NCBI GenBank assembly: GCA_964486105.1
Contig: CAZAKR010000012.1
Span: forward strand, 4,195 to 68,194
Direction of reading: 5' to 3'
DNA: 64,000 nt
Source of the DNA: an uncultured Rhodospirillaceae bacterium
Lineage (GTDB): Bacteria > Pseudomonadota > Alphaproteobacteria > UBA11136
The notes under the pieces were generated by a model. The model saw only the letters and a list, made by a program, of their open reading frames with translations. It made no database searches and was not told the DNA's origin. Both the position numbers and the translations under genes were made by a program. Below, in pieces: positions 40,402 to 49,385 of the stretch (positions are counted from its first letter, which is position 1; each line of letters opens with the position of its first letter).

Positions 40402-40517
40402 GGGCCCGGATCATAACCCCAGGGAGAGCGACAGAAAAGCCGGGATTGCACCGCCGGATAATCCCCTGCTAAGAACCATGGACTGCGTATTTTTGCGCCC
40501 CCCTTATGAGGCATGAA

Positions 40518-41663
40518 ATGGACAAAAAAAGTCCCCTGGACGGCATTACCGTTGTCGATCTGACCCGGATTCTCGCCGGGCCTTATTGCACCATGGTTTT
40601 GGCCGATCTCGGCGCCCGGGTGATCAAGGTTGAGGAACCCGAAAAAGGCGACGACGCACGTCATATCGGCCCCTTCATCGAGGGCAAGTCGGCCTATTTC
40701 ATGTCCTTGAACCGGGATAAGGAAAGTATCGCCCTCGACCTCAAAAACGCCGACGACAAGGCGGTTTTTGAAAAACTTCTCAAGAAGGCCGATGTGCTGG
40801 TCGAAAATTTCCGCCCCGGCACCATGGAAAAACTGGGCTATGGCTGGGAAAGACTGCACAAGGATTATCCCAGGCTGATCTTCGCCAGTGCCTCGGGCTT
40901 TGGTCAGACCGGGCCCTACAAAGACCGCGCCGCCTATGACATGGTAGTTCAGGCGATGGGCGGCATAATGAGCCTGACCGGCCATGCCGGCGCCCCGCCG
41001 ACCAGAGTCGGCACATCGGTCGGCGATATCACCGCCGGCCTGTTCACCACAATCGCCGTCAACGCGGCGCTGTTTCAACGCCACACAACCGGTATCGGCG
41101 CCAAAATCGACATCGCCATGCTCGATTGCCAGATCGCCATCCTTGAGAATGCGATCGCCCGCCATGTCGCCACCGGCGAAACGCCGCAACCGCTCGGTTC
41201 CCGCCATCCCTCGATCACGCCTTTCGACGCCTTTCACGCCGCCGACGGTTATCTGGTCATCGCGGCAGGCAACGACCGCCTGTTCGAAGCCTTGGCGCTG
41301 TCCCTGGGGCGCGCCGATCTCGTCACCAACGATTTGTTCGCCACCAACGATCTGCGCACTACCCACGCCGGCGCCCTGAAAGATGAAATCGAGATGACCC
41401 TGGGCGAAAAAAATGTCGCCCAATGGCTCGAGATTTTCACCGCCAAGGGCATCCCTTCCGGCCCCATCAACACCATCGGCGATGCCTTGAGCAACCCGCA
41501 GATACAAGCTCGCAATATGGTGATCGAAAGCGAGGATAAAATCGCCGGCACGGTGCGCATGGCCGGTAACCCGATTAAAATAGAAGGCATGCCCGACCCG
41601 GCGCAGCGCAACCCCGCCCCGGATCTCGATCAGGACGGGAAAAAAATTAAGAAAGAACTTTAA
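40518..41663 (+). CDS. Class III (CaiB/BaiF) CoA-transferase, YfdE/UctC-like
   Basis: LAGPYCT..LADLGA.VIKVE, ENFRPGTMEKLG, RVGTSVGD, GNPIKI.G..DP....AP.LDQ.G..I. The C-terminus resembles acetyl-CoA:oxalate CoA-transferases. Confidence 0.85.
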   Translation: MDKKSPLDGITVVDLTRILAGPYCTMVLADLGARVIKVEEPEKGDDARHIGPFIEGKSAYFMSLNRDKESIALDLKNADDKAVFEKLLKKADVLVENFRPGTMEKLGYGWERLHKDYPRLIFASASGFGQTGPYKDRAAYDMVVQAMGGIMSLTGHAGAPPTRVGTSVGDITAGLFTTIAVNAALFQRHTTGIGAKIDIAMLDCQIAILENAIARHVATGETPQPLGSRHPSITPFDAFHAADGYLVIAAGNDRLFEALALSLGRADLVTNDLFATNDLRTTHAGALKDEIEMTLGEKNVAQWLEIFTAKGIPSGPINTIGDALSNPQIQARNMVIESEDKIAGTVRMAGNPIKIEGMPDPAQRNPAPDLDQDGKKIKKEL

Positions 41664-41712
41664 GTTTATCTTTTAAGTTGTTGCTTTATCGTCATTTATA
41701 CTTGTGTTCAGA

Positions 41713-44283
41713 ATGAAGAAAACACACCGTCTGATCGTCCTGTTCCTTGCCTCCGTGATCGCCTGCCTCATCATTGGTGGGGTGTGGTTGCGCAGTTCCC
41801 TGCCCCAGACCAGTGGTGAAATCACCCTTCCCGGATTGACCGGGAAGGTCACCGTCAGCCGCAACGATCTTGGCATTCCGGCGATCGCTGCCGGGAGCGA
41901 AAGGGACGCCTATTTCGCGCTCGGTTTCGTCCATGCCCAGGACCGCCTTTTCCAGATGGACATGATGCGCCGAAATGGACAGGGCCGCTTGGCGGAAGTG
42001 ATCGGCGAGCCGGGATTGGTTCATGATCGCAAGAGCCGCGGTCTCGGTCTCTACGGCAATGCAAAAAAGAGTCTCGCCACTCTCCCGCCGCCGGTGCTTG
42101 AGGCACTCACCGCCTATAGTGAGGGGGTCAACGCCTATCTTGCTCATCACAGAGGCGCCCTGCCCTTGGAATTCACCGTGCTTGGTTATGAACCGGAGCA
42201 ATGGGCGCCCGTTGACAGTCTGCTCTGGGGGCGCTTGATGGCGGTCTGGCTTTCGGGCAATCATTTCGATGAACTGCGCCGCTCGATTTTAAGCAAAACC
42301 CTGACCAAATCGCAGATCGACGACCTCTGGCCACCCTATCCCGAAGATGCGATTTCCGGCGTTACCGGGGGCAAACACCTTAAAACCCGGGGGTTGCCGG
42401 ACCGTAGCCATATGGCCCCGTCCGTCTCAGCGGTGGTAGCGGCGCTCGGCAAGCGTATTCTCAACGCTTTACCCGCTCCCAAGGGGCCGGTCAGCGCCTC
42501 GAACGCCTGGGCCGTTGCAGGCGAATTGACGAGTACGGGAAAGCCTATCCTTGCCAACGATCCCCATCTCTGGCTCGCCACCCCGGGTGTCTGGTATCTG
42601 GCCCGCATCGACGCCCCGGGCCTGCATCTGGCCGGAGCGACTTCGCCGGGCGTCCCTTTCCTTATTCTCGGCCATAACGACCGCATCGCCTGGGGCATGA
42701 CCACCACCCATTCCGACACCCAGGACCTGTTTATAGAGCGTATCGATCCTGATGATCCCAACGCCTATCTCACCCCCGAAGGGTCTCGCCCGTTTGAAAT
42801 CCGCAAGGAGACAATCACCGTGCGCGGCGGTGAGCCTGTTGAGATGGTTCAACGCCTAACCCGGCACGGCCCGGTCCTTTCCGATTATCTCGATCTGCCG
42901 GAAGAAACGGACGACCTCTCTATTCTCGCCGGTGAAAACGACGAAGGTACGGGTCACGGGGACGACGGCGCCTATGTTTTGGCCCTGGCCGATCCCGCCT
43001 TAAGCGGAGTGGATATCTCGTTCACCAGCATCTATGGCATAAACCATGCTGCAAACTGGGACGAATTTACCACCGCCCTGTCCCATGGCACAGCGCCCCA
43101 GCAAAATCTCCATTACGCGGATATAGACGGCAATATCGGCTTTTACGCCCCCGCCCTGGTGCCAATCCGCAAAAAGGGCGACGGCATGGACCCGGTGCCC
43201 GGCTGGACCGGGGAATACGACTGGGCGGGGTTTATCCCTTTCGAATCCCTCCCCCATGCCTATAACCCGGCGGCGGGACGTCTGGTGTCGGCCAATCACA
43301 ATATCGTCGAAGCCGATTATCCCCATCACCTGACTCGCAGCTGGCCGAGCAGCTACCGGGTGGGGCGCATTCACAGCCTGCTTTCAGAGCACCCCCGCCA
43401 ATCAATGGAAACCATGGCGGCGATTCAAAACGATATTATTTCTCCCATGGCCCGCGATCTCCTTCCCCGTCTGCTGGAAATCGTGAACGTAGCCGGTGTG
43501 AACGACCAGGCGGCCAAAGCCCTGACCCTTCTCGGTGGCTGGGATGGAACAATGGACCGCCAGCGCCCCGAGCCGTTAATTTTTTCGTCCTGGATCAATG
43601 AAATCCAGCGCCTGATCGCCGAAGACGAACTTGGGGCTAATCATAAAGACATGTCTGGCACCCGGCCGAGGTTCATCAAAAACGTTCTGAGCGCGAATTC
43701 CATCTGGTGCGACGATGTGACCAGCGAGGAAACCGAGACCTGCGAAGAACGCCTGAAGGACGCGCTTAACGCCGCCATTGCCAATCTTGTTCGCCTCCAT
43801 GGTCAAGACATGACGACCTGGCAATGGGGGGACAGCCACACTACGGGTTTCACCCCCCGGATATTCAACCGACTGCCGCTCATCGGCGGCTGGCTGGGCA
43901 GGACAATCGCCACCGACGGGGGCAATCATACGATCAACCGGGGTACTTATATTCTTAACATTACCGGTCTCTATCCCGGCGCCAGCGATTTCCCCCACGT
44001 TCATGGCCCGACCATGCGGGCCATATACGATCTCGCCTCCCTTGATAATTCCCTGTTCATGATAACGCCGGGCCAGTCCGGCAATATTTTTTCAAGCCAT
44101 CACAATGATCTCGTCCCCGCCTGGCGCGACGGTCTTTATGTGACCCTGCCAAAACAATCGCCGAGAGAAGACGGGGAGGTGAAAAACGTCTCCGACAATG
44201 AAGTTGAAAGACCCCAAAATTCGCCTTTGATTCTTCATCTACTGCCCAAGAAAAAATTTAACAAAATGCCATCAATATATTGA
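41713..44283 (+). CDS. Penicillin acylase / AHL acylase family Ntn-hydrolase
   Basis: N-terminal TM; GFVHAQDRLFQMD; Ntn nucleophile SNAW; LANDPHL, GHN.RIAWG.T, PGQSG. Confidence 0.93.
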   Translation: MKKTHRLIVLFLASVIACLIIGGVWLRSSLPQTSGEITLPGLTGKVTVSRNDLGIPAIAAGSERDAYFALGFVHAQDRLFQMDMMRRNGQGRLAEVIGEPGLVHDRKSRGLGLYGNAKKSLATLPPPVLEALTAYSEGVNAYLAHHRGALPLEFTVLGYEPEQWAPVDSLLWGRLMAVWLSGNHFDELRRSILSKTLTKSQIDDLWPPYPEDAISGVTGGKHLKTRGLPDRSHMAPSVSAVVAALGKRILNALPAPKGPVSASNAWAVAGELTSTGKPILANDPHLWLATPGVWYLARIDAPGLHLAGATSPGVPFLILGHNDRIAWGMTTTHSDTQDLFIERIDPDDPNAYLTPEGSRPFEIRKETITVRGGEPVEMVQRLTRHGPVLSDYLDLPEETDDLSILAGENDEGTGHGDDGAYVLALADPALSGVDISFTSIYGINHAANWDEFTTALSHGTAPQQNLHYADIDGNIGFYAPALVPIRKKGDGMDPVPGWTGEYDWAGFIPFESLPHAYNPAAGRLVSANHNIVEADYPHHLTRSWPSSYRVGRIHSLLSEHPRQSMETMAAIQNDIISPMARDLLPRLLEIVNVAGVNDQAAKALTLLGGWDGTMDRQRPEPLIFSSWINEIQRLIAEDELGANHKDMSGTRPRFIKNVLSANSIWCDDVTSEETETCEERLKDALNAAIANLVRLHGQDMTTWQWGDSHTTGFTPRIFNRLPLIGGWLGRTIATDGGNHTINRGTYILNITGLYPGASDFPHVHGPTMRAIYDLASLDNSLFMITPGQSGNIFSSHHNDLVPAWRDGLYVTLPKQSPREDGEVKNVSDNEVERPQNSPLILHLLPKKKFNKMPSIY

Positions 44284-44441: not shown

Positions 44442-45647
44442 ATGCCTCGCACGAAAACCGGCCGCCACCATCTTTTTATCCCAGGTCCGACAAATGTTCC
44501 TGAGCCCGTACTCAATGCCTTGCACATTTCTTCGGAAGATATGCGTAGCGCTGACTTTCCCGACCTTACTCTGCCTCTGTTCAAAGACCTGAAGAAAATC
44601 TTCAAGACCACCAAGGGTAATGTTTTTGTTTTTCCCGGCTCTGGAACAGGCGCCTGGGAATCCGCCATTACCAACACCATGAATCCTGGTGAAAAGGTTC
44701 TGATTTTCCGCTTTGGCCAGTTCAGCCTTCTGTGGGCCGACATGTTCCAGCGCCTTGGCCTTGATGTCGATGTCCGCGACGTTCCCTGGGGCACCGGCAC
44801 ACCTGCTGAAAAGATCGAGAAAATCCTTAAGAAAGACAAAGACCATAAATATAAGGTCATTTGCGTCACCCAGAATGAAACCGCCACCGGCGTCTCCAGT
44901 AACGTTGCCGCCGTCCGCAAGGCGATGAACGCCGCCAAGCACCCGGCCATGCTTTTCGTCGATGGCGTCTCTTCCATCGCCAGTATTGATTTCCGGATGG
45001 ACGAGTGGGGCGTCGATTGCGCCATCTCGGGCTCGCAAAAAGGCTTCATGCTGCCTGCCGGACTGGCCATTCTCGCCGCCAGCCCGAAGGCGCTTAAAGC
45101 CCATAAAAAAGCTCAGCTGAAACGCTGCTATTATTCCTGGGAAGACATGTTGGCAACCAATGCCAGTGGTTATTTCCCCTACACACCACCGACTCCTATG
45201 CTGCGCGCATTGCGGGTATCGGTTGATATGCTTCTCGACGAAGGTCTCGAGAACGTATTTGCCCGCCACCACCGTATTGCCGAAGGCGTGCGCCGGGCTG
45301 TCAAAGACGGCTGGAAGCTCAAACTTTGCGCCAAGGGCTCAAAGTGGGAATCCGATACCGTCAGCGCGATTGTCGTTCCGAAAAATGCCGATGCACGTAA
45401 GGTAATTGCCACCGCTTATGGCAAATATAATTTGGCACTCGGAGCGGGACTTAATATTCTTGCTGGCAAGGTGTTCCGCATTGGACACCTTGGTGATCTT
45501 AATGAGCTTCAGGCAGCCGCCGCGATCACCGGTGCCGAAATGGCGATGATTGATAACGGTATTAAAGTCAAGCCTGGCAGTGGCGTCGCCGCCGCCAGTA
45601 AATATTGGTTGAAAAACATGAAGGCCCCGAAAAAGGCCAGAAAGTAG
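44442..45647 (+). CDS. sgaA: Serine-glyoxylate aminotransferase
   Basis: GRHHLFIPGPTN, RFGQFS.LW, NETATGV, SGSQKG, YFPYTP, VFRIGHLGDLNE; closely follows serine-cycle SgaA as I recall it. Confidence 0.9.
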   Translation: MPRTKTGRHHLFIPGPTNVPEPVLNALHISSEDMRSADFPDLTLPLFKDLKKIFKTTKGNVFVFPGSGTGAWESAITNTMNPGEKVLIFRFGQFSLLWADMFQRLGLDVDVRDVPWGTGTPAEKIEKILKKDKDHKYKVICVTQNETATGVSSNVAAVRKAMNAAKHPAMLFVDGVSSIASIDFRMDEWGVDCAISGSQKGFMLPAGLAILAASPKALKAHKKAQLKRCYYSWEDMLATNASGYFPYTPPTPMLRALRVSVDMLLDEGLENVFARHHRIAEGVRRAVKDGWKLKLCAKGSKWESDTVSAIVVPKNADARKVIATAYGKYNLALGAGLNILAGKVFRIGHLGDLNELQAAAAITGAEMAMIDNGIKVKPGSGVAAASKYWLKNMKAPKKARK

Positions 45648-45657
45648 TAGGCATCCA

Positions 45658-45915
45658 ATGGCGAAGAAACCGGTTAAACGCAAGACTACTGTAACCAAGA
45701 AGACGGCTGCCAAGAAGAAGCCAGCCGCCAAGAAGCGCGTGACCAAGAAGACAGCGGCGAAGAAGAAACCCGCCGCCAAAAAGAAGGTGACCAGGAAGAC
45801 GGCTGCCAAGAAGAAGCCTGCCGCCAAAAAGAAGGTGGCCAGGAAGACGGCTGCTAAGAAGAAGCCTGCCGCCAAAAAGAAGACCACCAAGAGAAAGGCG
45901 ACTAAACGGAAATGA
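45658..45915 (+). CDS. Histone H1-like Lys/Ala-rich repeat protein
   Basis: 85 aa, about 37 Lys + 6 Arg, no Asp/Glu; four 16-aa repeats V(T/A)(K/R)KTAAKKKPAAKK(K/R); differences between units are mostly synonymous. Confidence 0.8.
   Translation: MAKKPVKRKTTVTKKTAAKKKPAAKKRVTKKTAAKKKPAAKKKVTRKTAAKKKPAAKKKVARKTAAKKKPAAKKKTTKRKATKRK
45691..45882 (+). repeat. 48-bp coding tandem repeat, 4 copies
   Basis: Units start at 45691, 45739, 45787 and 45835 (GT(A/G)(A/G)CCA(A/G)GAAGAC..., ending AAGCGC or AAGAAG). Confidence 0.9.
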
Positions 45916-46973
45916 CGACAGCGCGTAAGGCTACAAAGAAAGCTCCCGCCAAGCGGAAGGTGAAAGCAAAAACAGCCGCAACCAAGAAAACTACCGTCAG
46001 ACGGGGTAAACCGACTGTTGTTGTTACCCGTAAGTGGCCCGAAGCCGTTGAAAAGGAATTAAAACGGCATTTTGACGTTCGCCTCAACAAGAGCGACAAG
46101 CCTATGTCTGTCGCCCAGTTGCAGCGGGCCTTAAGGACTGCTGACGCTCTTTTGCCAACCGTGACCGACAAGATCTCGGATGAGGTGCTTTCGGTTTCAG
46201 GTAAACGGGCGCGGATCATCGGTAACTTTGGCGTCGGCTACAACAATATCGATATCGCTGCCGCTAAAAGAGAGGGACTTGCCGTCACTAACACGCCGGA
46301 GGTTCTGACCGACTGTACTGCCGATATCGCCATGACCCTGATGCTGTCGGTTGCCCGTCGCGGCGGCGAGGGCGAACGTCATGTCCGCAACAAGAAATGG
46401 ACCGGATGGCGCCCAACCCACATGATGGGGGCCAAGGTGACCGGCAAGACCCTTGGTCTGATCGGTTTTGGCCGGATTGCCCAGGCCATGGCCCACAAGG
46501 CCCATCATGGTTTTGGCATGAAGATCGTTTTCTTTGACCCCTATCTGGCCGACAAGAAAGCCGCCAAGGCGGTTAAGGGCGTTTCCCGTTCTTCCATCGA
46601 TGCGGTTTTGAAAGAAGCGGATTTTGTTTCCCTTCACTGCCCTTCAACCCCCGAAACCCGTCGCCTCATTAATGCGACAAAACTGAAAAAGATGAAGAAG
46701 TCCGCCTTCCTCATCAATACCGCTCGGGGCGACGTTGTGGACGAAAAAGCCCTGGTCAAGGCTTTGAAAACCGGTGCAATTGCCGGTGCCGGCCTCGACG
46801 TTTTCGAAGCCGAACCAAAGGTTACAGCAGCGCTTTTGAAGATGGAGAACGCCGTTCTCTTTCCCCATCTCGGCAGCGCCACCCTTGAGACCCGCGAGGC
46901 CATGGGCTTTAGGGTTGTTGACAACATCAAGGCCTTCTTTAAAGGCAAACGGCCCAAAGACCGCGTTGCCTGA
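45912..46973 (+). CDS. Hydroxypyruvate/glyoxylate reductase (D-glycerate dehydrogenase) with histone-like N-terminal extension
   Basis: GVGYNNID, NTP.VLTD.TAD, GFGRIA, INTARG.VVDE, GLDVFE.EP, PHLGSAT. First ~32 aa are MTTARKATKKAPAKRKVKAK... Confidence 0.92.
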   Translation: MTTARKATKKAPAKRKVKAKTAATKKTTVRRGKPTVVVTRKWPEAVEKELKRHFDVRLNKSDKPMSVAQLQRALRTADALLPTVTDKISDEVLSVSGKRARIIGNFGVGYNNIDIAAAKREGLAVTNTPEVLTDCTADIAMTLMLSVARRGGEGERHVRNKKWTGWRPTHMMGAKVTGKTLGLIGFGRIAQAMAHKAHHGFGMKIVFFDPYLADKKAAKAVKGVSRSSIDAVLKEADFVSLHCPSTPETRRLINATKLKKMKKSAFLINTARGDVVDEKALVKALKTGAIAGAGLDVFEAEPKVTAALLKMENAVLFPHLGSATLETREAMGFRVVDNIKAFFKGKRPKDRVA

Positions 46974-47004: not shown

Positions 47005-47038
47005 ACCCGCTGCCGGCTCCCGGCGGCGGGTCATTTTT
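47005..47038 (+). terminator. Terminator-like hairpin between hpr and gck
   Basis: ACCCGCTGCCGG-CTC-CCGGCGGCGGGT followed by CATTTTT. Confidence 0.55.
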
Positions 47039-47078
47039 AGATAGCGTTTCACCTGCCAGAGCGAATAAAACAACAATT

Positions 47079-48455
47079 ATGACCCCAGACCAGATGACAA
47101 TCAGCCACTTGCGCGACCAGGCCAAGGCCATTTTTCAGGCCGGTGTGGATTCCGCCGACCCGGCCCGTGCCGTTGCCGGCGTTCTTTCCTGCCGCGATGG
47201 TCAGCCTGTTTTCACGCCTCATCCCCTGTCGCCGAATGAGGAAGAAAAAACCCGTAAGGGCCAGTGGGAGCGCGTTTTTATACTCTCTTTCGGCAAAGCC
47301 GCAGTCGCCATGGCCGAGGCCGCGGCAAAGATCATCCCCGACAACCTCTTCCAGGCGCCAGGCATTGTCGTCACCAATTACGAAAACGCAGATGTTTCCA
47401 TTCCCGGTTTTGAAGTTATCGCCGCCGGCCATCCCCTGCCCGATGCAAACGGCGTTAACGGCGCCGCCAGAATCGCCGAAATTGCGCGCTCGGCAACAAA
47501 GGACGATCTGGTTCTGGTGCTCGTCAGCGGTGGCGGTTCGGCCTTACTCCCCCTGCCCGCTGAGGGCTTAAGCCTTGACGACAAGATCGCCACCACAGAT
47601 CTGATGCTGGCTTGCGGCGCATCTATCAACGATATGAACTGCGTGCGTAAACATCTCTCAATGCTCAAGGGCGGTGGTCTGGCCAGCATGGCCGCACCGG
47701 CAGACCTTCATGCACTGATCCTTTCCGATGTCATCGGTGATGACCTTTCGACCATCGCCAGCGGTCCGACGGTTCCCGATATGACCACCTTCGAAGATGC
47801 GGTTGGTATCCTCAAGCAACGCGATATCTGGGAAAAAGTTCCGGCAACCGTCCGCGCTCGTTTAGAAGCCGGCATGGCGGGGGATATTCCCGATACCCCG
47901 AATGAAAAAGACCCTCTTTTCGACACCGTCAGCCATCACCTGATCGGCAGCAATACGGTCAGCGTCCACGCTCTTCTCGATGCTGCGGGCAAGGATTTCG
48001 AGGGTGAAGTGTTGAATTATCCGCTTTGCGGCGAGGCCCGCGACGCCGCGGAAACACTGGTTGATAAGGCGCTTAAATACAAACCACGAGAAGACGGCAA
48101 GCCCATTGCCATTGTCACCGGTGGCGAGACCACCGTTACCCTGAAAGGCGACGGTATGGGCGGCCGTAATCAGGAAATGGCGCTGGCCTTTGCCCTGGCG
48201 GCCGAAAAAAAGGGGCTGACCGGCAACTGGGTCTTTCTTTCCGGCGGCACCGACGGCCGCGACGGCCCCAACGACGCCGCCGGCGGAGTGGTTGATCCCG
48301 GCAGTCTCGAGCGTATGCGGGCAGAGGGGGGCGAACCGTCGGCTTTTCTCGATAATAACGATTCCTATCACGCCCTGGAGAAGGCGCAGGATTTGCTTAT
48401 GACCGGGCCAACCGGCACAAATGTCGCCGATCTTCAGATTTTTCTGCGCACTTAA
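47079..48455 (+). CDS. gck: Glycerate 2-kinase (GckA/TtuD, MOFRL domain)
   Basis: FGKAA..MA, AGHPLPD, SGGGSAL, SDV.GD.L..IASGPT, GGETTV, GGRNQE, GTDG.DG, TGTNV.D. Confidence 0.93.
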   Translation: MTPDQMTISHLRDQAKAIFQAGVDSADPARAVAGVLSCRDGQPVFTPHPLSPNEEEKTRKGQWERVFILSFGKAAVAMAEAAAKIIPDNLFQAPGIVVTNYENADVSIPGFEVIAAGHPLPDANGVNGAARIAEIARSATKDDLVLVLVSGGGSALLPLPAEGLSLDDKIATTDLMLACGASINDMNCVRKHLSMLKGGGLASMAAPADLHALILSDVIGDDLSTIASGPTVPDMTTFEDAVGILKQRDIWEKVPATVRARLEAGMAGDIPDTPNEKDPLFDTVSHHLIGSNTVSVHALLDAAGKDFEGEVLNYPLCGEARDAAETLVDKALKYKPREDGKPIAIVTGGETTVTLKGDGMGGRNQEMALAFALAAEKKGLTGNWVFLSGGTDGRDGPNDAAGGVVDPGSLERMRAEGGEPSAFLDNNDSYHALEKAQDLLMTGPTGTNVADLQIFLRT

Positions 48456-48596: not shown

Positions 48597-48713
48597 ATGC
48601 TCGTAATTGTTGGTTCCATCGTTGTTATTATCTGCGTTTTCGGCGGCTATATGGGCGGCGGCGGATGTAATATCCCAGGAAAACGAAGACACGGCGAGCG
48701 AGGACACCCCTGA
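48597..48713 (+). pseudogene. motA: Truncated motA-like 5' fragment (flagellar stator)
   Basis: Not in the ORF track. Reads MLVIVGSIVVIICVFGGYMGGGG, matching MotA TM1 (..G.IVV..CVFGGY...GG); similarity stops after about codon 23 and TGA follows at 48711-48713. Confidence 0.6.
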
Positions 48714-48864
48714 TGGTGAAACGCTTGATGGTGAAACGCCTGATGGTGAAGTTCCTGATGCCGTTATCCCCGATGACGGGCAAGTCGATACCCTGCCCCC
48801 CGAGCCTTCGGCGGAACCCGAGATAAATCCCATCGCCCCCCTTGAACCGGAGACTTCGCCATGA
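48661..48864 (+). pseudogene. Orphan acidic Pro-rich 3' gene end, possibly the tail of a deleted motB
   Basis: Frame reads ADVISQENEDTASEDTPDGETLDGETPDGEVPD...PETSP*. Its stop overlaps the RDD start (ATGA), but it has no convincing start or RBS. Confidence 0.4.
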
Positions 48865-49385
48865 CCCAGACCACCGAGGTTATCCCGGTTCCAGCGACCC
48901 CGTGGCAGGGTGAACCACCCGACCCCCTCACCCATCCCGATCTCTATCGGGGCGTCATGATGCGCCGGGTGTTTGCCTATCTCGTCGATATCATCGCCAT
49001 CGCGCTGATCGCCTTTCTCACCGGCGGCATCTTCATCATCGCCGGGATCGTGACCCTGGGCCTGCTCGCCCCCCTGCTGTGGCCGATTTATGTGCTTATA
49101 CCCTTCGCCTATAACATGATCCTTATCGGCGGCGGCAGATCGGCGACCCTGGGCATGCGGCTGTTCGAGATCGAAGTGCGGAATCTCAACGACGGCAGCC
49201 GCCCCTATTACATTCAGGCGGGACTGATGACGGCGCTTTTCTATGTTTCAGTCGCCTTTACGAGCTGGCTTATCCTGCTTCTCGCCCTGTTCAACTCCCG
49301 CCATCGCACCTTGCATGATTTCTTTTCCACCACCCTTGTCGTGCGCAGTCAATCGATGGGGGAGATGGAAAACAAGACAAGCTGA
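48861..49385 (+). CDS. RDD family membrane protein
   Basis: RRVFAYLVD, SATLGMR, RTLHDF.S.T.VVR. Confidence 0.92.
   Translation: MTQTTEVIPVPATPWQGEPPDPLTHPDLYRGVMMRRVFAYLVDIIAIALIAFLTGGIFIIAGIVTLGLLAPLLWPIYVLIPFAYNMILIGGGRSATLGMRLFEIEVRNLNDGSRPYYIQAGLMTALFYVSVAFTSWLILLLALFNSRHRTLHDFFSTTLVVRSQSMGEMENKTS

Follow-up and report, generated by a model that had tools for sequence, protein, structure and literature searches.

Charge switch in three formate-to-glycerate enzymes of a marine alphaproteobacterial genus, with a histone H1-like gene between two of them, suggests possible tethering to nucleic acid

Three enzymes of the formate-to-glycerate route, the formate-THF ligase Fhs, the D-2-hydroxyacid dehydrogenase Hpr, and the class-V aminotransferase SgaA, have had their net charge inverted by about 20 to 38 units each in a single genus of marine alphaproteobacteria, at loci that are fully conserved. 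Comparison of the predicted proteins with their orthologs demonstrated the inversion, its enzyme and genus specificity, its origin in place, and an operon architecture in which a small gene for a lysine-rich polycation stands between sgaA and hpr. The charge switch together with this histone H1-like gene suggests that the enzymes are parked on DNA or RNA, and our leading explanation, to which we assign a probability of roughly 40%, is a selected electrostatic tethering of Fhs, SgaA, and Hpr to nucleic acid polyanions. Cytoplasmic enzymes are normally neutral to acidic, one reason being the tendency of cationic proteins to adhere to ribosomes and nucleic acids, and a pathway-coherent inversion of such size needs explaining, whatever the cause. 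Our literature search recovered no earlier description of this charge pattern.

The sgaA-hpr locus (Table 1) lies in a 64,000-nucleotide window, the whole stretch of DNA that was analyzed. SgaA (K39 R18 D22 E15) has a net charge of +20 and a pI of 9.70, and Hpr (K43 R26 D17 E16) has a net charge of +36 and a pI of 10.41; the resulting K+R versus D+E counts of 57 to 37 and 69 to 33 reproduce exactly those of the initial annotation, which had also placed Hpr without its tail at about +20 (residues 33 to 353 are still at +22/+23). The other features it had described, a polycation open reading frame (ORF) of about half K/R that follows sgaA closely and is ATGA-coupled to hpr, and a hairpin ahead of an acidic gck, were found as claimed. 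This hairpin, with a 12-bp stem containing 10 G-C pairs and a subsequent T-run (CATTTTT), sets the sgaA-ORF-hpr unit apart from gck. Gck itself (pI 4.69) is unshifted, with orthologs at -19 to -23 in sister-genus-like loci, and the genes flanking the three-gene unit are acidic in this genome (G000). No shell-family match was obtained among the scanned window ORFs around the locus.

Table 1. Features of the sgaA-hpr-gck region, in window coordinates
Feature	Position	Strand	Basis or remark
sgaA, class-V aminotransferase, serine-glyoxylate type, 401 aa	44442..45647	+	
SgaA C-terminal Lys-rich tail, KNMKAPKKARK	45612..45644	+	Ortholog alignment
Spacer between sgaA and polycation ORF, 10 nt	45648..45657	+	Sequence reading
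Polycation ORF, 85 aa, H1-like by composition	45658..45915	+	Composition
Tandem repeat within polycation ORF	45694..45882	+	Tandem Repeats Finder
hpr, D-2-hydroxyacid dehydrogenase, hydroxypyruvate/glyoxylate reductase type, 353 aa	45912..46973	+	Pfam PF02826, PF00389
Hpr N-terminal Lys-rich extension, residues 1-32	45912..46007	+	Ortholog alignment, G001
Intrinsic-terminator-like hairpin	47005..47031	+	Between hpr and gck
gck, glycerate 2-kinase (DUF4147/MOFRL)	47076..48455	+	Net -25; local control

SgaA, whose ATG start at 44442 is backed by the ortholog alignment, matched Pfam PF00266 with 69.8 bits (cut-off, 21.5), and its closest solved structure is the serine-glyoxylate aminotransferase 6PK1 (447 bits over residues 6 to 389), with the PLP-lysine motif SGSQK aligned to TGSQK. 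It scored 559 bits against the NCBIfam BhcA equivalog model (cut-off, 650), and the presence of hpr and gck favors serine/hydroxypyruvate as its probable substrate pair. Hpr matched both PF02826 (207.8 bits) and PF00389 (98.3 bits) above threshold and has 5AOV, 2DBQ, and the D-glycerate dehydrogenase 1GDH as solved relatives; every NCBIfam match fell under its equivalog cut-off (the best, a glyoxylate reductase model, with 333.9 versus 455 bits), so its exact substrate is assigned from context. Both proteins carry Lys-rich tails. That of SgaA is found in G000 and in a second genome of the genus (G001), while the orthologs in G002 to G005 stop at ...EYWRNN in the alignment, and the Hpr extension is likewise genus specific; the sole alternative in-frame start of Hpr, a GTG at codon 17, would leave its K-rich tail in place.

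The charge of these enzymes stands out against the rest of the proteome. A crude call of 1,895 ORFs in G000 gave a median pI of 5.64, with a pI above 10 in only 20 of the 861 ORFs that encode 300 aa or more, which rules out a genome-wide basic bias, in agreement with the initial annotation. Across 1,191 ortholog pairs between G000 and a sister genome (G002), the charge shift had a mean of +1.0 and an SD of 5.4, and the three largest values were those of Fhs (+38), Hpr (+34), and SgaA (+30), followed by +26. With z-scores of 6.1 for Hpr (rank 2) and 5.3 for SgaA (rank 3), the charge of these two proteins is far beyond chance. The gene fhs lies on a different contig from sgaA-hpr. The check for a common pathway among basic outliers, proposed in the initial annotation, gave a positive result, with the top three of 1,191 shifts all on one route. 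A shift of the whole pathway can be rejected: FolD and GlyA stand between Fhs and SgaA but shifted by only +2 each, and Gck, Fae, and Mch are also unshifted. High-ranked shifts outside the pathway include those of LeuRS (+26), PurB (+22), and ArgB (+20), and PurB joins SgaA and Hpr in having gained a Lys-rich tail in this lineage. The genome also carries Mch of the H4MPT route, two HpcH-family genes, and two SucC-like genes.

Among the relatives compared, the charge anomaly is confined to the genus. Its second genome, G001, encodes an SgaA of +23, an Hpr of +34, and a partial Fhs of +18, whereas four sister-genus genomes have the identical gene order without the inserted ORF or the tails and encode acidic orthologs (70 to 78% identical) with charges of -9 to -14 for SgaA and -10 to -13 for Hpr. 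Orthologs of Fhs are at -18 in G002, -17 in G003, and -8 in G013. More widely, SgaA charge was between -15 and +3 at 79 of 80 species loci (-8 to +2 at Methylobacterium and Hyphomicrobium loci, where no K-rich ORF is present), and Hpr charge was between -16 and +2 in all 80 metagenome sequences from a scan with the Hpr query, which recovered no genus member and a best match of 69% identity. Measured against family medians, the charge excess shrinks to about +20 to +25 from the +30 to +38 obtained against G002. Other orthologs being acidic or neutral, the equal basicity in unrelated taxa that the initial annotation had named as a refutation was not seen. A second basic lineage (G301 and G157; GC, 38%), roughly 70 to 75% identical to G000, has an SgaA of +16/+18 and an Hpr of +25, but its neighboring genes are basic too (CoA-transferase, +33; Gck fragment, +25), which indicates that its bias is proteome-wide. 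We therefore rejected this lineage (P0013, P0242, and P0153) as an independent parallel; its basic Fhs, P0153, could not be linked to genomes G301 and G157.

The shift was built from many substitutions. Gains versus losses of K/R numbered 21 to 7 in SgaA, 28 to 7 in Hpr, and 23 to 2 in Fhs, and the gained residues are dispersed along the chains at variable alignment columns (conservation of 0.43 to 0.53 versus 0.76 to 0.81 overall), column conservation serving here as a proxy for surface location of the gained lysines. A minority of sites allowed polarization, and their counts were about +10/+11 for this branch against -6/-7 for the sister branch; by this estimate the sister-genus branch turned more acidic and contributed part of the difference. 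Third-position A was unenriched in the three genes (z of +0.7, +0.1, and -0.8; first-position A, +1.9), which excludes an A-ward mutation bias. Both loci are syntenic between G000 and G002, and fhs has a native A3 and a GC3 z-score of +0.1, although the GC3 of sgaA is somewhat low (z of -1.6). With native third-codon composition and syntenic loci, mutation bias fails to account for the shift, and so does a Lys-rich donor, of which our check found no sign. Horizontal replacement is thus unsupported by synteny and GC3, and quick-method trees of Hpr (65 rows) and Fhs (123 rows) leave the placement of G000 ambiguous, with either the second basic lineage or the sister genus.

The product of the inserted gene comprises 37 K, 6 R, and no D or E (51% K/R; net charge, +43). 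A weak AGG core resembling a Shine-Dalgarno sequence lies in the spacer that precedes the gene. The TGA of the ORF and the ATG of hpr overlap as ATGA, an arrangement that is kept in G001 along with the reading frame. Because the ORF and hpr frames differ and the overlap is retained in G001, two coupled genes are a simpler reading than a frameshifted N-terminal extension of Hpr, which we set aside. Its internal repeat consists of 3.9 copies of a 48-bp (16-aa) unit with 87% matches and no indels, and other assemblies break inside it; an antisense ORF (45339-45890, minus strand) with FFLAAGFF repeats is the mirror of this repeat, was passed over by a codon-usage gene caller, and was discarded. 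The earlier description of the product as histone H1-like holds for composition, in its K/R content, its lack of acidic residues, and its repeats, but not at the level of family membership: its match to Pfam HC2 (PF07382; E of 3.1e-4) reached 21.3 bits against a gathering threshold of 40, so the likeness is one of composition rather than of proven homology, and no NCBIfam family matched at an E value of 1e-5 or less. The ORF is missing at all 16 syntenic sgaA-hpr-gck loci from other species, and tblastn against G002 gave no match. Contigs from RNA libraries, which may contain DNA, span both the sgaA-to-ORF and ORF-to-hpr junctions; the depth of these contigs cannot rank expression, and stretches outside them carry no information. 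Further H1-like modules in the same genome are an Mdh tail, a phasin-H1 fusion, a CarD extension, and another H1-like gene.

These observations may be joined into a single account. Fhs, SgaA, and Hpr turned from acidic to strongly cationic in place, through many dispersed, presumably surface-located changes to Lys/Arg together with loss of Asp/Glu; the same lineage put Lys-rich tails on SgaA, Hpr, and PurB and placed a translationally coupled gene for a free 85-aa polycation between sgaA and hpr. The cationic enzymes would then most likely stick electrostatically to nucleoid DNA, ribosomes, or RNA and thus be slow-moving and co-localized, and the free polycation may either contribute to condensation of this phase or modulate how strongly its sites are competed for. 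The benefit could be retention of hydroxypyruvate/glyoxylate or a higher local flux; polyanion binding, co-localization, and any benefit are steps that we infer from the charge pattern. In Escherichia coli, +25 GFP attaches to ribosomes, and its movement is slowed by as much as 100-fold (PMC5726854), and the KPAA-repeat, H1-like protein AlgP is described as localizing to a polyanion granule (PMC9239181). Several points count against tethering: FolD, GlyA, and Gck are unshifted where a simple metabolon or channeling model predicts them to be shifted, the shifts of LeuRS, PurB, and ArgB are unrelated to the pathway, and on a shared polyanion the enzymes would face competition from a free polycation. 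The original rationale, that the enzymes share reactive glyoxylate/hydroxypyruvate, likewise covers neither the shift in Fhs nor the lack of one in GlyA, FolD, and Gck, and since these three are unshifted, an account based on shared intermediates is incomplete. Overall, the initial interpretation is partly supported, and none of the three sequence-based findings that it had named as refutations was obtained.

A bolder version, in which the three enzymes, the polycation, and Lys-tailed Mdh and PurB would co-condense on RNA/DNA into a charge-encoded, membrane-less and shell-less organelle that concentrates the formate-to-glycerate route and retains glyoxylate/hydroxypyruvate, is in our judgment rather unlikely; should it hold, nature would provide its own equivalent of the supercharged-protein coacervates that have been engineered.

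Of the explanations that dispense with tethering, electrostatic steering survives best, though we consider it unlikely. Here cationic surfaces would have been selected to draw small anionic substrates (formate, glyoxylate, hydroxypyruvate, polyglutamylated folate, and nucleotides) at the low metabolite concentrations of an oligotrophic marine cell, with no role in localization and an unrelated ORF. That Fhs, SgaA, and Hpr, and also PurB, ArgB, and Mdh, use anionic substrates is established biochemistry, and the dispersal of K/R gains over the surface, as judged by the conservation proxy, would fit; yet nearly all central-metabolic enzymes use anions and only three are strongly shifted, global net charge acts over a very short range at cytoplasmic ionic strength, and the Lys-rich disordered tails and the coupled in-operon polycation ORF are left unexplained. 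A role in charge balance or nucleoid organization is distinctly unlikely. Fhs, SgaA, and Hpr, presumed to be the most abundant soluble proteins of C1 growth, and the free polycation would then serve as macromolecular counter-ions that reshape nucleoid and ribosome distribution, with co-localization as a by-product, much as abundant positive proteins are reported to determine how nucleoid and ribosomes are laid out in a minimal cell (PMC12858079), and the additional H1-like modules in the genome would be in keeping with it. However, GlyA and Fae are expected to be abundant too and are unshifted, and the high abundance of the three enzymes is itself presumed, contig depths being unable to rank expression.

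An origin without specific function, either by neutral or compensatory drift or as a relic of replacement from a Lys-rich, AT-rich donor such as the second basic lineage, appears improbable. The basic SgaA and Hpr of that lineage, trees that allow a single origin with G000, and the low GC3 of sgaA would accord with replacement, but the bias of that lineage is proteome-wide whereas the G000 neighbors are acidic, synteny with G002 holds at both G000 loci and fhs is compositionally native, and replacement would have had to occur three separate times, at two loci. Nor does drift predict ranks 1 to 3 of 1,191 on one route or gain/loss ratios of 3:1 to 11:1, and the trait is kept in both species of the genus. 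Association with the membrane, in which cationic enzymes and tails would bind anionic inner-membrane phospholipids and bring C1 assimilation beside membrane-bound or periplasmic C1 oxidation, agrees with general electrostatics and with the presence of an H4MPT-linked C1 oxidation module (Mch), but is quite improbable given that K/A/P/T H1-like repeats typify nucleic acid or polyphosphate binding. Polyphosphate granules, suggested by analogy with AlgP and with the basic-pI polyphosphate kinases that localize there (PMC9239181) and named among the polyanions of the initial annotation, would be a highly improbable partner, since searches for Ppk1 (PF02503) and Ppk2 (PF03976) found neither in any of five genomes (G000, 97.8% complete, G001, G002, G003, and G301) while control genomes were positive.

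If the change in charge was selected for localization, evolution can build spatial metabolic organization from surface charge alone, and such organization could be recognized in sequences and reproduced by synthetic biology. Being acidic and 70 to 78% identical, the sister-genus orthologs make the system unusually clean and provide natural controls for the effects of charge on mobility, partitioning, and flux.

The closest known systems are AlgP, PhaF, and PhaM, whose H1-like KPAA/AAKP-repeat domains tether polyphosphate or PHA granules to the nucleoid. Like the polycation ORF product, they contain Lys/Ala/Pro-rich tandem-repeat polycations with no acidic residues, the net charge of AlgP being about +55 (PMC9239181), and G000 also encodes a true phasin-H1 fusion that combines Phasin_2 with HC2-like regions. 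Unlike these proteins, however, the ORF product is a free peptide without a globular domain and is encoded within an enzyme operon, its neighboring enzymes are charge inverted over their whole catalytic domains, and no polyphosphate kinase was found in the genomes searched. Chlamydial Hc2 (PF07382) resembles it in composition and repeat character, at a sub-threshold score. The Methylobacterium and Hyphomicrobium serine-cycle enzymes SgaA, Hpr, and FtfL (with 1GDH, and 6PK1 for plant SGAT) belong to the same families and share the sgaA-hpr adjacency and catalytic motifs, but their SgaA is not cationic, unlike that of G000. Supercharged proteins made by engineering, along with charge-driven protein-RNA condensation, offer a further comparison. 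With net charges of +20 to +36, SgaA and Hpr fall within the ribosome-binding, slow-diffusion range of engineered +25 GFP (PMC5726854); but whereas engineered supercharged proteins are artificial, the case described here is natural and involves three enzymes of one route in one genus.

A serine-glyoxylate aminotransferase-type protein (SgaA) and a hydroxypyruvate reductase-type protein (Hpr), both basic, are encoded in the source genome (2.06 Mb, 23 contigs, ~57% GC) on either side of an 85-codon ORF for a polycation, upstream of a gene for an acidic glycerate 2-kinase (Gck). The hand counts of K/R and D/E made for SgaA and Hpr in the initial annotation were exact on recount, and Hpr without its tail (residues 33-353) still has a net charge (K+R-D-E) of +22/+23. 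Because 10 nt separate the sgaA stop from the start of the 85-codon ORF, the stop of that ORF and the start of hpr overlap as ATGA, and a strong terminator-like hairpin follows hpr, these three genes look like a single transcription unit, with gck apart. An antisense ORF whose FFLAAGFF repeats mirror the Lys-rich repeat is probably not a gene. Downstream of gck, an acidic ORF with a hydrophobic N-terminus followed by a very acidic Pro/Glu/Asp-rich stretch overlaps at its 3' end the beginning of the gene for an RDD-family membrane protein; it had no tblastn match in G002, a sister-genus genome, and no Pfam family.

Features and their coordinates (window coordinates, the window being C12:4195-68194, or contig:position in the source genome where a contig is named)
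Feature	Position	Strand	Properties
Family-III CoA-transferase	40506-41663	+	385 aa; net -8; pI 5.66
Penicillin amidase	41704-44283	+	859 aa; net -22; pI 5.80
sgaA	44442-45647	+	PF00266; K39 R18 D22 E15; net +20; pI 9.70
Antisense ORF	45339-45890	-	183 aa
85-codon polycation ORF	45658-45915	+	37 K, 6 R, no D/E; net +43; pI 12.0
hpr	45912-46973	+	PF02826, PF00389; K43 R26 D17 E16; net +36; pI 10.41
Terminator-like hairpin	47005-47031		
gck	47076-48455	+	DUF4147/MOFRL; 459 aa; net -25; pI 4.69
Acidic ORF	48607-48864	+	85 aa; net -21
RDD-family membrane protein	48861-49385		
PPi-dependent phosphofructokinase	C12:3557-4792		Partly before window start; net +22; pI 9.8
Formate-THF ligase (Fhs)	C9:86014-87741		
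Adenylosuccinate lyase (PurB)	C17:7233-8612		
Malate dehydrogenase	C1:198339-199550		403 aa; enzyme domain 1-316; net +53
Phasin-H1 fusion	C2:64487-65128		
CarD	C11:88428-89177		K-rich N-extension
Further free H1-like gene	C18:1-380		Runs off contig end

The proteome as a whole is not basic; a crude codon-usage gene call (1895 ORFs, 90% of bases) gave the usual bimodal pI distribution with a median of 5.64, and pI is above 10 in only 20 of the 861 ORFs that encode 300 aa or more. We compared the 1895 ORFs by tblastn with 1.94 Mb of G002, counting charge within aligned cores and excluding pairs with identity below 45%, coverage below 70%, or a second query on one subject region, which left 1191 pairs with a mean shift (source genome minus G002) of +1.0 (SD, 5.4). 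The three largest shifts belong to Fhs, Hpr, and SgaA, with Fhs at +21 in the source genome and -17 in G002 (-17/-18 in the sister genus). The same three lead among the 684 pairs with at least 65% identity, where their shift per substitution is 0.30 to 0.35 against a mean of 0.01 (SD, 0.05). A basic PPi-dependent phosphofructokinase of the source genome has no counterpart within the examined 1.94 Mb of G002.

Largest charge shifts relative to G002, with substitutions for the leading three (acid-to-K/R changes are included in the K/R gains)
Protein	Rank	Shift	z	K/R gained/lost	D/E to neutral	D/E gained	Acid to K/R
Fhs	1	+38	6.8	23/2	15	7	9
Hpr	2	+34	6.1	28/7	10	4	7
SgaA	3	+30	5.3	21/7	8	3	10
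LeuRS	4	+26				
PurB	5	+22	3.9			
ArgB	6 (tied)	+20				
KamA-like radical-SAM protein	6 (tied)	+20				

The basic outliers therefore do fall in one pathway, as the initial annotation had proposed to check: Fhs, SgaA, and Hpr all lie on the route from formate through formyl-THF, serine, and hydroxypyruvate to glycerate. The route is only partly covered, as FolD (+2), GlyA (+2), Gck, Fae, and Mch show no charge shift against G002. The accompanying idea that the basic enzymes share glyoxylate and hydroxypyruvate fits SgaA and Hpr, but leaves the inclusion of Fhs and the exclusion of GlyA, FolD, and Gck unexplained. The genome also carries Mch (H4MPT route), two HpcH-family genes, and two SucC-like genes, a set compatible with serine-cycle methylotrophy but not proof of it.

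Orthologues elsewhere are not equally basic. A search of 41 related genomes matched SgaA in 21, and charges were read at those loci. In the same-genus genome G001, SgaA (96% identity) is at +23 and is followed by the same Lys-rich ORF, interrupted by the contig end. In the sister genus (G002 to G005; SgaA 73 to 76% identity), net charges are -9 to -14 for SgaA and -10 to -13 for Hpr, and sgaA directly adjoins hpr, with no intervening ORF and no terminal tails; two relatives further away, G013 and G022, have SgaA/Hpr charges of -6/-1 and -10/-6. The best 120 SgaA homologues in a large protein collection, all with identities of 62% or more, range from -16 to +23 (median, -1), and only two reach +15, a same-genus protein and the marine protein P0013. 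Across 80 species-representative loci, the sole basic SgaA (+21) is that of the same-genus Rhodospirillaceae bacterium isolate SI074_bin107 (L069), the remaining 79 spanning -15 to +3, and a K-rich ORF between the genes was found at none of the 16 loci with syntenic sgaA-hpr-gck order (L070 to L085). Hpr at 80 metagenome loci (52 to 69% identity) ranges from -16 to +2 (median, -4.5). The G001 copy of Fhs, which is partial, is at +18, those of G003 and G013 are at -17 and -8, and 120 Fhs homologues span -16 to +21 (median, +1). AT-rich relatives at L073 and L075 to L081, one of them titled Pelagibacteraceae TMED13, have the opposite pattern, with Gck at +17 to +42 and neutral SgaA and Hpr.

Marine data also contained a second set of basic proteins, comprising SgaA (P0013, +18), Hpr (P0242, P0248, and P0252, +24 to +26), and Fhs (P0153, +20). 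In the cluster tables, the longest contigs of SgaA and Hpr members agree exactly in length, which suggests that both genes lie on the same contigs. Among 401 genomes of the class, this lineage was found in G301 and G157, marine members of another order with genomes of ~1.1 to 1.2 Mb. We rejected it as a true parallel, since its loci (L342 and L343) have 38% GC and their neighbors are also basic (CoA-transferase, +33; Gck fragment, +25), so that its basicity looks like a proteome-wide Lys bias, unlike that of the source genome. Quick-method trees of Hpr (65 rows: 58 of 120 matches plus 7 genome-derived) and Fhs (123 rows) did not settle the position of the source genome relative to this lineage.

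Substitutions in SgaA, Hpr, and Fhs relative to G002 are strongly directional. The K/R gains are spread across all quarters of each chain and occupy alignment columns that vary (conservation there averages 0.43 to 0.53 versus 0.76 to 0.81 overall, computed without same-genus and second-lineage sequences), and SgaA retains its PLP-lysine motif. In the three genes, A is not enriched at the third codon position (z of +0.7, +0.1, and -0.8), whereas it is at the first (z of +1.9). GC3 is native in fhs (z of +0.1) and somewhat low in sgaA (z of -1.6), and synteny with G002 contigs holds at both loci; the penicillin amidase gene upstream of sgaA is also present in G004 and G005. The directional gains, codon-position A, GC3, and synteny point to a charge change that would have occurred in place at the amino acid level, and against mutation bias and import; drift or replacement is an unlikely rival explanation. 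At the minority of sites that outgroups could polarize, about +10/+11 falls on the source-genome branch and about -6/-7 on the sister branch, and the excess over family medians is about +20 to +25.

Several lines of evidence argue that the 85-codon ORF is probably a real gene. G001 keeps its frame, its C-terminal ...KRKATKRK, and the ATGA overlap, with repeat differences in-frame; 29 of the 37 Lys codons are AAG; no other ORF of the source genome that lacks a G002 counterpart is as basic; and RNA-Seq contigs (two libraries, at least 99% match) span the junctions of sgaA with the ORF (45529-45786) and of the ORF with hpr (45793-46041), although these libraries could include DNA and the contigs do not give expression level. 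The ORF contains a 48-bp tandem repeat (3.9 copies, 87% matches, no indels). Its histone-H1-like label holds in composition but not in profile score, which is under the Pfam HC2 threshold (21.3 versus 40 bits), and no NCBIfam model matched. The lineage of this genus added tails to SgaA (C-terminal), Hpr (N-terminal), and PurB (C-terminal); that of PurB is Lys-rich and genus-specific, G002 PurB ending before it. At its C terminus, malate dehydrogenase carries a KR-rich tail of 87 aa whose repeats resemble those of the 85-aa protein. G001 and G003 also have this tail, G002 has a short one, and G013 has none, a distribution that makes the tail older than the genus. K-rich segments occur in 26 ORFs, among them those for TopA, RNase-type proteins, trigger factor, the phasin-H1 fusion, CarD (in its N-extension), and a further free H1-like protein.

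At the level of sequence, these comparisons show that charge was inverted selectively, in one genus, in place, and coherently with one pathway, alongside an operon-embedded polycation. Together with the behavior of two known systems, this inversion favors electrostatic association with nucleic-acid polyanions, on which cationic Fhs, SgaA, and Hpr would be held, as both its likeliest effect and the function under selection (probability of roughly 0.4). In Escherichia coli, ribosome binding and an up to 100-fold slowing of diffusion are reported for a soluble protein of charge +25 (PMC5726854), and KPAA-type H1-like domains localize to polyanionic bodies (PMC9239181). Electrostatic steering, counter-ion or nucleoid organization, and membrane binding would be rival accounts of the same charge. 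We consider it unlikely that the charge encodes a compartment without a shell, which would be the bolder reading. Polyphosphate, one of the partners initially envisaged, is disfavored, since Ppk1 and Ppk2 were found in none of five genomes (the source genome, at 97.8% complete, G001, G002, G003, and G301), and the control genomes were positive.

In the part of the literature that our search covered, we found no account of SgaA, Hpr, or Fhs being cationic, nor of pathway-specific supercharging in nature. The phasin-H1 fusion encoded elsewhere in the genome, in which an AKKV-repeat region is joined to a Phasin_2 domain, resembles PhaF or PhaM. We file the pattern in the source genome as a variant of tethering by H1-like polycations.
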